Made by a program: the position numbers and the translations under genes. Shown here piece after piece: positions 61,387 through 64,000 of a stretch of 64,000 bases of DNA; the stretch's first letter is position 1, and every line of letters begins with the position of its first letter. The stretch is from an uncultured Christensenella sp. GTDB lineage: Bacteria > Bacillota > Clostridia > Christensenellales > UBA1242. The notes beneath the pieces are model-generated. The model had not been told where the DNA came from. It was given only the letters and a program-made list of their open reading frames with translations, and made no database searches. The stretch covers positions 76,215 to 140,214 of the forward strand of contig CASFHD010000001.1 of the NCBI GenBank assembly GCA_949294455.1. The letters run 5' to 3'.

Positions 61387-62079
61387 ATGGAAGTTGATAA
61401 TAAAAAAAATGACGAAAATATAATCCCTAATGATGCAGATAAGCCACAAAAAGGTGTTAATGTTCCTAATTTGAGATTCCCTTGTTTTTATTCAAAATGG
61501 GAGAAAAATAAATTTAAAAATCTTTTTGTTTTACTTAAAAATAATACATTATCTCGTGCAGAATTAAATTATAATAAAGGCAAAATAAAGAATATTCATT
61601 ATGGAGATATCTTAATAAAATTTAATGATTTTGTATTATCAAATTCGAATTCTATACCATATATAAACGATGAAAGCATTCCTAATAAATATTCAGAATT
61701 ATTGCTAAAAAATGGCGATTTAATAATTGCAGATACCGCAGAAGATTACTCAGTGGGGAAAGCTACAGAATTAATATTTAATGATAAATCTTTAATAATT
61801 TCAGGTTTGCATACAATACCTTGTCGACCAGTTCAAAATATTTTTGCTTCTAAATATTTAGGTTATTATATAAATAGTCCTAGTTATCACAATCAGTTAT
61901 TACCATTAATTCAAGGAATAAAAGTAAGTTCAATTTCTAAATCTCAAATTATTAATACTTATATCACATATCCAGATATTAAAGAACAAAATAAAATTGC
62001 AGAATTTTTAGATTTAATTGACCAACGCATTGACACCCAAAGCAAAATCATTTATATTAATTTCAAAAACAAATGGTAA
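61387..62079 (+). CDS. hsdS: Type I specificity subunit at the expression locus: TRD1 + start of the central conserved region, ending prematurely
   Basis: ATG lies 1 nt after the hsdM stop. VPNLRFPCF N-terminal motif. IAEFLDLIDQRIDTQSKII central motif, then YINFKNKW-stop. Confidence 0.85.
   Translation: MEVDNKKNDENIIPNDADKPQKGVNVPNLRFPCFYSKWEKNKFKNLFVLLKNNTLSRAELNYNKGKIKNIHYGDILIKFNDFVLSNSNSIPYINDESIPNKYSELLLKNGDLIIADTAEDYSVGKATELIFNDKSLIISGLHTIPCRPVQNIFASKYLGYYINSPSYHNQLLPLIQGIKVSSISKSQIINTYITYPDIKEQNKIAEFLDLIDQRIDTQSKIIYINFKNKW
61460..61478 (+). repeat. 5' hsdS recombination repeat, copy A (encodes VPNLRF)
   Basis: ATGTTCCTAATTTGAGATT. Its reverse complement is at 63682..63700, and a direct copy of the 17-nt core is at 63722..63738. 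Confidence 0.85.
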
Positions 62080-62581
62080 AGTTGTTGCACTTTCTGAAAT
62101 AGCCAAAGTTTACCAACCAGAAACAATCACTCAATCAAAGTTTAATGAAAATGGAAAATTTCCCGTTTTTGGTGCCAATGGGCTAATTGGACATTATAAT
62201 TTTTATAATCATGAGAACGCACAAATTTGTATAACCTGTCGTGGTGCTACATGCGGAAATGTTAATCTTTCTCTGCCAAAATCTTGGATTACAGGCAATT
62301 CTATGGTTATTAATACAGATGAATGCACTAGAATAAATAAAATGTATCTATATTATTTACTAAAAAATTATAATTTTAAAAGTATTATTTCAGGATCAGG
62401 ACAACCGCAAATTGTTAGAGAGCCTATTTCTGCAATAAAGATTAATTTACCAATAATTCAAGATCAAAACGAAATCGTTAAAATTTTGAATACATACAAT
62501 GAATTGTTAAGAAAAGAAAAAGATATACTTAAGCTTTATAAAAAGCAAAAAGCATATCTTCTTAAAAACATGTTTATATAA
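62018..62581 (+). CDS. hsdS: hsdS TRD2 + distal conserved region, in the +1 frame relative to 61387..62079 (frameshifted half; TTG start is only nominal)
   Basis: KVVALSEIAKVYQ...FGANGLIGHY...ITGNSMVINT...KLYKKQKAYLLKNMFI. No ATG or RBS of its own. Confidence 0.65.
   Translation: MTNALTPKAKSFILISKTNGKVVALSEIAKVYQPETITQSKFNENGKFPVFGANGLIGHYNFYNHENAQICITCRGATCGNVNLSLPKSWITGNSMVINTDECTRINKMYLYYLLKNYNFKSIISGSGQPQIVREPISAIKINLPIIQDQNEIVKILNTYNELLRKEKDILKLYKKQKAYLLKNMFI
62023..62052 (+). repeat. Central hsdS inverted repeat, copy A (30 bp, encodes QRIDTQSKII)
   Basis: CAACGCATTGACACCCAAAGCAAAATCATT. The exact reverse complement is at 63189..63218. Confidence 0.9.
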
Positions 62582-63719
62582 ACATATTCGAGAGCAGATA
62601 TTTTTTCTGCTCTTTTAATTTTTCCAAAATTTTATTTTCAATGGAAATTTTATTACTTATTAAATCTAAATTTTTAACAATTTCATATTGAGTATCTAAT
62701 GATGGAAGATGAATTTTGATTTTGGACAAGCTTTCAAAAGATAAGCACAATCTTACGCTTCCTTCAAGATTTTTTAATACTTCATTATTAAATTTGTTTG
62801 AATGAGAAAAGTAATCCAAATAAGATGATAAAATTCTATTGTTATTTGCTCTAAAACAAATATACATAGGACTTACTATTCCGACTTGGTTGCTTCTTAA
62901 CATTGCAATAGAGCCAACATTGATTCTTGCTGGATTATATGCAAAATCATTTTGTTTTACAATTTTATAATTTGATTTATTTGCACTTGCAACTTCATGA
63001 TCATCGAATTGTTCACTTTGAGGGATAAACCCATATTTATTACTAACTGACAAAACTTCAAAATCTTTGTTTTGTTCATTTCTATTATTCAACTGAGTAA
63101 TAATATCTCCTAAACTTGCATAATCATTGCTTTTATCGCAATAAAAATATTGATTTTCAATACTTTTTTTAAACAATTCTAAATCTTCAATGATTTTGCT
63201 TTGGGTGTCAATGCGTTGATTAATAATACTTAAAAATTCACCAATTTTTTGCTGTTCATCATAATCTGGAATGTTAATTATTATATTTTTACATACATCT
63301 TGATTGAGCTTAGGTTGGGCAGACCCAGTGTTATATTTGGCATAATCCAGATTTTCTAAATATTCTGAAAGATAATTTATATCGATTTTATTTTTAGGTT
63401 TTAACACATGAGCATGATTATTTACCCATAATTTTCCACGAACAATGAATGATACTCTATAATTTCTATCCAAAATATTAGCCCCATCTTCACTTAATAA
63501 AATGAGGTTATCATCAAATATATATGAATTAATATTATCTATAATGCCCGATGCCCCATAGTATGGATACTGTCCTTTTATTTTTTTTCTATCAATTTCT
63601 TTAATTGGTTTTCTCTGTTCATCTAGGAATATGACGCAATCATTTAGTAAACAACGATGCCATGTTGAGCTAAAACACGCAAATCTCAAATTAGGAACAT
63701 AACAACAATTACATCTCAA
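62574..63719 (-). CDS. hsdS: Inverted, promoterless full-length hsdS' cassette (two TRDs); no ATG or RBS
   Basis: VPNLRFACF ... IGEFLSIINQRIDTQSKIIEDLELFKKSIENQ ... KEQKKYLLSNMFI. The track start is a TTG directly after a stop codon. Confidence 0.8.
   Translation of the reverse strand: MRCNCCYVPNLRFACFSSTWHRCLLNDCVIFLDEQRKPIKEIDRKKIKGQYPYYGASGIIDNINSYIFDDNLILLSEDGANILDRNYRVSFIVRGKLWVNNHAHVLKPKNKIDINYLSEYLENLDYAKYNTGSAQPKLNQDVCKNIIINIPDYDEQQKIGEFLSIINQRIDTQSKIIEDLELFKKSIENQYFYCDKSNDYASLGDIITQLNNRNEQNKDFEVLSVSNKYGFIPQSEQFDDHEVASANKSNYKIVKQNDFAYNPARINVGSIAMLRSNQVGIVSPMYICFRANNNRILSSYLDYFSHSNKFNNEVLKNLEGSVRLCLSFESLSKIKIHLPSLDTQYEIVKNLDLISNKISIENKILEKLKEQKKYLLSNMFI
62591..62625 (+). terminator. 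Hairpin + T-run that can terminate the hsd operon (embedded in the 3' end of the silent cassette)
   Basis: AGAGCAGA-TATTTTT-TCTGCTCT followed by TTTAATTTTT. Confidence 0.5.
63189..63218 (-). repeat. Central hsdS inverted repeat, copy B
   Basis: AATGATTTTGCTTTGGGTGTCAATGCGTTG on the plus strand. Same codon phase as copy A. Confidence 0.9.
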
Positions 63720-63739
63720 AAGTTCCTAATTTGAGATTT
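63682..63739. repeat. Head-to-head pair of 5' hsdS repeats (copies B and C) separated by 21 bp
   Basis: AATCTCAAATTAGGAACAT (63682..63700), 21 bp, then GTTCCTAATTTGAGATTT (63722..63739). Confidence 0.85.
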
Positions 63740-64000
63740 GATAATACAATATGGCAAGAATCAACACTTGGCCAAGTTTGTACTGGATTTGATTATGGTA
63801 TAGGTGCAGAAGCTATTAATTTTGATGGATTGAATAAATATATAAGAATAACGGATATTGATGAATATAATTCTCATTTTATTGATAAGTCAAAAGTTTC
63901 ACCATCTTTTATAAACGAAAATTGTGTTGTGAAAGAAAATGATATATTATTTGCTAGAACTGGTGCAAGTACAGGTAAATCATATTTATATAATAAAAAT
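63722..64000 (+). CDS. hsdS: Third hsdS'' cassette (TRD1-type), startless; runs off the window
   Basis: Manual translation gives VPNLRFDNTIWQESTLGQVCTGFDYGIGAEAINFDGLNKYIRITDIDE...ILFARTGASTGKSYLYNKN with no stop. An in-frame TAG lies 27 nt upstream and no ATG intervenes. Confidence 0.75.

Follow-up and report, generated by a model that had tools for sequence, protein, structure and literature searches.

Type I restriction-modification (R-M) systems whose specificity gene (hsdS) is rearranged by DNA inversion form a well-known class. The survey of epigenetic invertons by Huang et al. (2020) counted 827 loci in 235 species; most are host-associated, tyrosine invertases predominate, and some of the loci (clade 2) yield a truncated HsdS on inversion and hence ON/OFF switching (PMC7672463). 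The paradigm is the six-state switch of the pneumococcal SpnD39III or ivr (cod) locus (Manso et al., 2014, PMC4190663; PMC7672463). Another arrangement is the staphylococcal hsdRSMS operon, with hsdR, a short single-domain hsdS (about 190–200 aa), hsdM and a long hsdS, in which proper base modification in E. coli was obtained only with both hsdS genes (PMC10030836). The locus described here lies at the end of a 64,000-nt stretch of an uncultured Christensenella sp. genome (contig CASFHD010000001.1; the whole stretch is called the window), where an R-M operon on the + strand (56317–64000) has the same hsdRSMS gene order (hsdR, short hsdS, hsdM, long hsdS) and continues, from 61387 onward, into a series of hsdS cassettes (Table 1). 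With a probability of about 0.85, the mechanism operating on these cassettes is tyrosine-recombinase-driven inversion at two repeat families, R1 and CR1; this reading is carried by the repeats, the cassettes and their reading frames, by relatives rearranged at the repeats and by a recombinase gene in those relatives.

The hsdR, hsdM and hsdS genes stand together, as a Type I R-M system requires, and PF01420 (Pfam Methylase_S) is matched by every cassette of sufficient length with E-values from 6.9e-08 to 5.5e-31. The hsdS copies alternate in orientation (hsdS +, hsdS' -, hsdS'' +), so the locus holds the at least two hsdS genes of mixed orientation used to recognize epigenetic invertons among Type I loci, and R1 and CR1 provide the flanking inverted-repeat pairs (PMC7672463). 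The ATG of the expression-site hsdS lies one base past the hsdM stop and is preceded by AAGGAGG; hsdS' has neither leader nor ATG, only a fortuitous TTG start, and its protein has an identical entry in the public set (P0001). The 17-nt core of R1, GTTCCTAATTTGAGATT, occurs exactly three times in the window, at 61462–61478 (+), 63682–63698 (-) and 63722–63738 (+), where 0.07 would be expected by chance, and none of 100 shuffles reached three copies. As a repeat of 17–19 nt, R1 codes for VPNLRF in the N-terminal conserved motif; its first two copies lie in an extended inverted repeat of 41 nt (61460–61500 and 63660–63700, 83%), and copies 2 and 3 form a perfect one of 19 nt (63680–98 and 63722–40). 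CR1, which codes for QRIDTQSKII in the central conserved helix, is a perfect inverted repeat of 30 nt (62023–62052 and 63189–63218) with no chance matches in 100 shuffles, and is the core of a longer inverted repeat (82 nt, 82% identity; 61971–62052 and 63189–63270). The 16-nt perfect palindrome ATGTTTATATAAACAT exists because two convergent gene ends, each reading NMFI-stop, overlap tail-to-tail; an identical 8-nt overlap is found in the related loci L002, L006 and L082. It is a consequence of the tail-to-tail layout and not an exchange site whose use changes anything. All of these repeats had been listed in an earlier note made from the window's letters (three copies of R1, two of CR1 and the palindrome), and they are present, R1 and CR1 far above chance in the shuffles. 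That note also held that both families begin at codon position 1, which is true of CR1 in both copies and not of R1, since R1 at 61460 falls on codon position 2 (the AAT codon starts at 61459). R1 has the same phase in the two copies checked, those of hsdS and hsdS', so that the reading frame carries through R1 unchanged. Of the silent cassettes claimed in the same note, the complete startless hsdS' on the - strand is borne out by its open reading frame (ORF) and its Pfam match, and the startless hsdS'' running off the window by a frame that stays open from 63722 to the window end.

Close relatives of this operon are rearranged at these same repeats. Two of them (L082 and L083) are ENA assemblies and a third (L084) is a Logan assembly from another run. 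Identity to the window is 98.1% for L082 over 54950–62052 and 98.9% for the shorter L083 over 59296–62052, both stretches ending on the final base of CR1; window 62512–63274 (the conserved tails, TRD2b and CR1') matches both with 92.7% identity and reversed orientation. The protein encoded at the expression site of both, P0003 (426 aa), is the recombinant predicted for the window from its first target-recognition domain (TRD) and the second one of hsdS' (TRD1a + TRD2b). L084 is identical to L082 (100%) over 4743 nt to the last base of R1, past which its expression site holds the silent TRD1 of L082 in inverted orientation (99.3%) and then rejoins L082; in the rejoined block 15 of 15 mismatches fall within CR1 and the following 1212 nt are identical. 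What sets the two apart is thus an exchange of TRD1 between R1 and CR1, the background being identical otherwise, and this is the expected product of two successive inversions. Inversion is thus seen at the level of the lineage, in the breakpoint at the CR1 end between the window and L082 and in the TRD1 swap between L084 and L082, and the multi-cassette inversion switch of the pneumococcal ivr, Mycoplasma and Bacteroides kind that had been proposed for this locus is supported by these breakpoints, together with the distal tyrosine recombinase of the relatives. L002 belongs to a different strain, with hsdR and hsdM 99% identical to those of the window; its homology to the window stops at 61478, it carries an intact 415-aa expression-site hsdS with other TRDs, and its contig ends just past the CR1 of the third cassette. 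TRD1b-like domains are found in the public proteins both at an expression site (P0007) and as a third half-cassette beside a recombinase (P0103). The contigs of L001 (100% identical to the window), L003, L004 and L005 stop 0–1 nt past the R1 core, and 14 of 84 related contigs end 53–127 nt past hsdM; such ends are expected if reads diverge after R1 and serve as supporting evidence only. Run ERR10610462 is the source of a contig with 100% identity to the window as far as R1.

In L082 and L083 the third cassette is a half-cassette (TRD1 + CR1), followed on the same strand by a gene (13127–14053) for a 308-aa tyrosine recombinase that matches Phage_integrase and Phage_int_SAM_3 in Pfam, Xer-type models in NCBIfam and tyrosine recombinases in the PDB (Int protein 6emy, 1e-17). 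The window ends inside its own third cassette, before the position of this gene; the block of R1', spacer and R1'' is 96.6% identical to L082 12396–12454, and TRD1c shares 79.5% identity with the third L002 cassette. On the model of L082 and L083, hsdS'' would be such a half-cassette followed by a recombinase gene, and the enzyme of this genome is most likely encoded just beyond the window, as in these 98%-identical relatives. Exact-protein look-ups for sequence past 64000 (with the 230-aa expression-site ORF, hsdS'/P0001 and the TRD2a ORF P0121) returned nothing, that for hsdM returned only an 8.9-kb contig ending at R1, and two metagenome scans for the same sequence gave nothing new. A more distant relative, L006 (hsdM 83% identical), has four further cassette ORFs, an adjacent Phage_integrase gene (2.8e-33) and perfect inverted repeats of its own, N-terminal (37 nt) and central (21 nt), and about 25 of the fetched loci carry a homologue of its enzyme no more than a few kb from hsdM. 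The expression-site hsdS of L006 (11560–11700) has no canonical start codon between the TAG stop of hsdM and the R1-type repeat, and shares its frame with hsdM.

Comparison across phyla bears on R1 itself. The 17-nt core is identical base for base in loci of Pedobacter, Flavobacterium, Mucilaginibacter and Solobacterium (L013, L058, L060, L069, L071 and L073, that is, Bacteroidota and Solobacterium), whose HsdM proteins are only 52–55% identical. In the two Pedobacter loci (L071 and L073) an exact inverted R1 partner stands about 80–125 nt upstream of a tyrosine recombinase gene, and several further Bacteroidota loci have the same layout with one or two mismatches. This identity extends to synonymous positions, which argues that R1 is constrained as DNA, and the comparison points to R1 as a probable recombinase site.

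The proposed mechanism is that the specificity gene behind hsdM would be built from interchangeable half-gene cassettes by site-specific inversion, with R1 and CR1 as the crossover sites. Only the copy behind hsdM, with its ribosome-binding site, ATG and 24-codon leader, would be expressed and the other cassettes would be silent. Inversion between R1 copies would swap the whole hsdS, inversion between CR1 copies the second TRD only, and TRD1c would become available through an inversion that pairs the CR1 copies of hsdS' and the third cassette, all catalyzed by the tyrosine recombinase presumed to be encoded after the third half-cassette. When the inversions are carried out in silico, CR1 alone gives an in-frame HsdS of 426 aa (TRD1a + TRD2b), R1 alone one of 399 aa (TRD1b + TRD2b), and the two combined again a truncated product. 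Three TRD1 and two TRD2 cassettes would allow six arrangements, three full length and three truncated by prediction. Switching would presumably be ongoing in this genome and would change its methylation.

The likeness to epigenetic invertons lies in the several hsdS copies of alternating orientation, the inverted repeats in the conserved N-terminal and central regions, the tyrosine recombinase of the locus (seen here in close relatives) and the host-associated Firmicute carrying it; unlike in those loci, truncation here comes from one defective cassette and not from repeat position, and the recombinase is not visible in the window. The pneumococcal ivr locus has two TRD1 and three TRD2 cassettes with the recombinase gene between them. 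The present locus differs from that type in having three TRD1 and two TRD2 cassettes, and in the relatives the recombinase gene is distal to the last half-cassette. Both have one expressed hsdS with silent partial cassettes, several inverted-repeat families at domain boundaries, six arrangements (predicted here) and a tyrosine recombinase (CreX/PsrA in SpnD39III/ivr, that of the relatives here), whereas the repeats here are much shorter (perfect cores of 17–30 nt), an extra short hsdS lies between hsdR and hsdM, and one TRD2 cassette is defective. The shufflons of Mycoplasma pulmonis (hsd) and Bacteroides fragilis (hsdS) are alike in assembling hsdS combinatorially by inversion at short conserved coding sites, and differ in their recombinases, of which HvsR is encoded apart from its target loci (PMC7672463), and in site sequences and gene order. 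With the staphylococcal hsdRSMS systems the locus shares its gene order, except that the long hsdS is described there as single and fixed and is here a shufflon.

The expression-site gene itself is interrupted. Past CR1 its ORF reads an aberrant tail (YINFKNKW) and stops at a TAA (62077–62079) 27 nt past CR1, and the TRD2a cassette that follows is in the +1 frame; the expression-site junction reads CR1-TATATTAATTTC with TRD2a and would read CR1-GAAGATTTAGAA with TRD2b. In an alignment with intact HsdS proteins, 24–26 residues separate SKII from the second TRD in the relatives, compared with about 12 plus the frame shift here. The junction is thus about 12 codons short and shifted by one base, so that the gene ends at 230 aa with one TRD and a shortened helix, and since it is short besides being frameshifted, a single-base repair would not restore a normal central helix. 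The expression-site gene had been taken as intact in the earlier note, which does not hold, and its statement that recombination preserves the reading frame applies to one TRD2 cassette (TRD2b) and not to TRD2a. No protein more than 60% identical to TRD2a was found in a set of 5.8 billion proteins apart from the window's own ORF; its nearest relatives are 52–58% identical, and one matching cluster was named by NCBI for Bacteroides thetaiotaomicron. TRD2a has the appearance of a recent acquisition whose 5' join, placed exactly where CR1 ends, is imprecise. Capture of a stand-alone half-hsdS with its own 5' region was considered and rejected, as 62050–62069 scored 26 when compared with 59178–59197 and unrelated windows scored 27–28; the 173-aa homologues of TRD2a appear to be silent cassettes truncated by the gene caller, longer relatives having a normal helix of about 20 residues before the TRD. 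Programmed frameshifting or slippage over 62053–62079 was likewise discarded on reading the sequence, which offers no suitable slippery heptamer and an A5 run that is too short.

The best sigma-70-like match in 56000–64000 (TTGACA-17-TATATT, 11 of 12 positions; 62030–62058, +) has its -35 element inside CR1, and its -10 element consists of the six bases with which the aberrant TRD2a junction opens. That the junction creates a promoter is not favored, as no in-frame start codon follows and promoter-like sites number 46 for an expected 58.8; the match is probably due to chance. The terminator-like hairpin listed in Table 1 lies antisense in the conserved C-terminal codons (KEQKKYLLS) of hsdS'.

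The sequenced orientation, which joins TRD1a to TRD2a at the expression site, is a truncated state, possibly OFF or single-domain, and one inversion would remove the defective junction. A passage in PMC12429846 states that single-domain HsdS proteins can dimerize and recognize palindromic targets. It is conceivable, though rather unlikely, that the defective TRD2a belongs to the design of the switch as a second layer. Three of the six states would then give a two-domain HsdS and three a single-domain one (TRD1 + shortened helix), and the latter would either silence the variable specificity or methylate a different symmetric target, acting as a homodimer or with the short HsdS; if so, specificity shuffling would be combined with ON/OFF or mode switching in an hsdRSMS-type system.

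Several points weigh against an inversion system that is at work in this genome. The contig ends at R1 could stem from co-existing strains with different TRD1 cassettes instead of inversion isomers, and the truncating junction rests on one assembly, its 230-aa product not being found in public protein sets. The window and L082 also differ by cassette replacement (TRD1b, TRD2a and TRD1c), so horizontal exchange also shapes the locus. In the window, tblastn with the L006 and L082 enzymes found no recombinase at E<=1e-3 (best E=2.4) and a Pfam scan of 40 ORFs, which did not cover ORFs 29817–32120, 32262–34634 and 45283–50355, was negative, so that the absence of a recombinase gene from the window, as claimed before, holds for what was searched. 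Part of this would fit a locked or decaying shufflon of invertible ancestry that no longer switches, its recombinase being lost or inactive or TRD2a marking a pseudogene, and the system being left without specificity or dependent on the short HsdS only; the interrupted gene, the abnormal junction of a cassette without close relatives and the tblastn result for the window are what one would then expect. We regard this as distinctly unlikely, given that the inverted repeats are still perfect over 19 nt (R1) and 30 nt (CR1), that hsdS' is stop-free over 381 codons, that hsdR and hsdM are full length and that the block around R1' and R1'' is nearly identical to that of the recombinase-bearing L082, the damage being confined to the TRD2a junction, which is cleared from the expression site by one inversion.

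The interruption could instead be an assembly or sequencing artefact hiding a full-length expression-site hsdS: the source is apparently a metagenome-derived contig, the 230-aa product is unrecorded, and on reading the sequence, deletion of one A from the A5 run at 62065–62069 fuses the frames. Even so repaired, the helix would still be some 12 residues shorter than in every intact relative; the public ORF P0121 reads the same junction, though it probably comes from the same assembly, and good base quality is indicated upstream, where 5479 nt of the window agree at 100% with an independent Logan contig, all of which makes an artefact very unlikely. Least credible of all is that cassette exchange takes place over evolutionary time, through horizontal replacement or general homologous recombination, with neither a dedicated invertase nor phase variation inside a population. 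Replacement does happen, since the TRDs of the window, L002 and L082 are largely different despite 98–99% identity of hsdR and hsdM, and the conserved regions, being protein-coding, would be similar anyway. For RecA-dependent exchange, however, repeats of 17–30 nt are short; the only difference between L082 and L084 is a swap whose limits fall exactly at R1 and CR1; and R1 lies beside a tyrosine recombinase gene and is conserved even at synonymous positions from phylum to phylum. In pneumococci, too, cod inversions are mostly made by a tyrosine recombinase that recognizes inverted repeats (PMC7672463).

Table 1. Features of the R-M operon and of its hsdS cassettes in the window (coordinates in nt from the first base of the window).
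Feature	Coordinates	Strand	Remarks
hsdR	56317–59118	+	Type I restriction subunit, 933 aa; EcoR124-type C-terminal domain
Short hsdS-like gene	59209–59817	+	202 aa, single TRD; between hsdR and hsdM
hsdM	59817–61385	+	N6-adenine methyltransferase subunit, 522 aa
Expression-site hsdS ORF	61387–62079	+	230 aa; Pfam Methylase_S 6.9e-08
Leader of hsdS	61387–61458	+	
R1 copy 1	61460–61478	+	Left boundary of variable region
TRD1a	61479–61970	+	
CR1 region of hsdS	61971–62052	+	
CR1 copy 1	62023–62052	+	30-nt perfect core, central conserved helix
TRD2a cassette	62053–62581	+	+1 frame relative to expression ORF; Pfam Methylase_S 1e-22
C-terminal conserved region of TRD2a	62512–62581	+	Ends ...LLKNMFI
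Palindrome	62570–62585		16 nt, perfect; overlapping convergent ends of TRD2a and hsdS'
Terminator-like hairpin and T-run	62590–62614	+	Consensus scan only; just past expression-site stop
hsdS' silent cassette pair	62574–63700	-	ORF 62574–63719; Pfam Methylase_S 5.5e-31, two stretches; C-terminal ...LLSNMFI
Helix and TRD2b of hsdS'	about 62660–63188	-	
CR1' region of hsdS'	63189–63270	-	
CR1 copy 2	63189–63218	-	Inverted partner of 62023–62052
TRD1b	63271–63681	-	
R1 copy 2 (R1')	63682–63700	-	Inverted partner of 61460–61478
hsdS''	63722–64000	+	R1 copy 3 + TRD1c; startless, frame open to window end
R1 copy 3 (R1'')	63722–63739	+	Opens hsdS''

The invariable part of the operon is made up of recognizable Type I subunits. 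hsdR matches HSDR_N, SWI2_SNF2, T1R_D3-like and EcoR124_C in Pfam and TIGR00348 in NCBIfam (337.9 bits, cut-off 284.55), and hsdM matches N6_Mtase (7.9e-112) and HsdM_N in Pfam and TIGR00497 in NCBIfam (438 bits, cut-off 242.75). The short hsdS is constant and lies outside the invertible region; its Pfam Methylase_S match is weak (E=0.0019, below the cut-off). It is 99–100% identical in L001, L002 and L082–L084 and 73% identical in L003, and relatives of 30–46% identity hold the same position in L006–L008, L011, L013 and L049–L051; L004 and L005, with an hsdM of 88% identity, lack it. A tblastn search with the short HsdS returned homologues of less than 60% identity in 64 plasmid records, 11 of them from Staphylococcus and not individually inspected, and distant plasmid homologues carry the annotation "restriction endonuclease subunit S". 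One such distant homologue, on the Ligilactobacillus salivarius plasmid NZ_CP020859.1 (L085, 83961–100485), heads another Type I locus, in which two methylase genes are accompanied by a tyrosine recombinase and by several hsdS cassettes that face both ways.

Upstream of hsdR (52969–56270) are genes for an AAA_14/DUF4143 ATPase, two small helix-turn-helix proteins, a YpsA/SLOG protein and a T5orf172/DUF4357 protein, which accompany the R-M operon in L001 and, for the last three, in L082; this suggests that they form a defence or mobile island with the operon. The remaining genes of the window (G+C content 27%) are of sporulation, germination and housekeeping type, as in a Clostridia chromosome. 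Among them, an ORF of at least 2825 codons (1–8475, -) with a hydrophobic start runs off the left end and may encode a surface protein, and a T-box leader (36040–36248, -; Rfam RF00230, 103 bits) precedes the gene for the alpha subunit of phenylalanyl-tRNA synthetase (34988–36007).

The locus is an ordinary member of the well-known invertible hsdS class and leaves the current understanding of that class unchanged. With it, an uncultured Clostridia lineage of the human gut joins the bacteria that have invertible hsdS genes, and the locus offers a clean comparative case of switching, in which near-identical strains are found in different arrangements with breakpoints exactly at the 17- and 30-nt sites. 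Beyond the routine are the truncated state in which the locus was sequenced, the presence of a shufflon in an operon of the hsdR-S(short)-M-S type, so far described with a fixed long hsdS, and the conservation of R1 across phyla beside a tyrosine recombinase gene.

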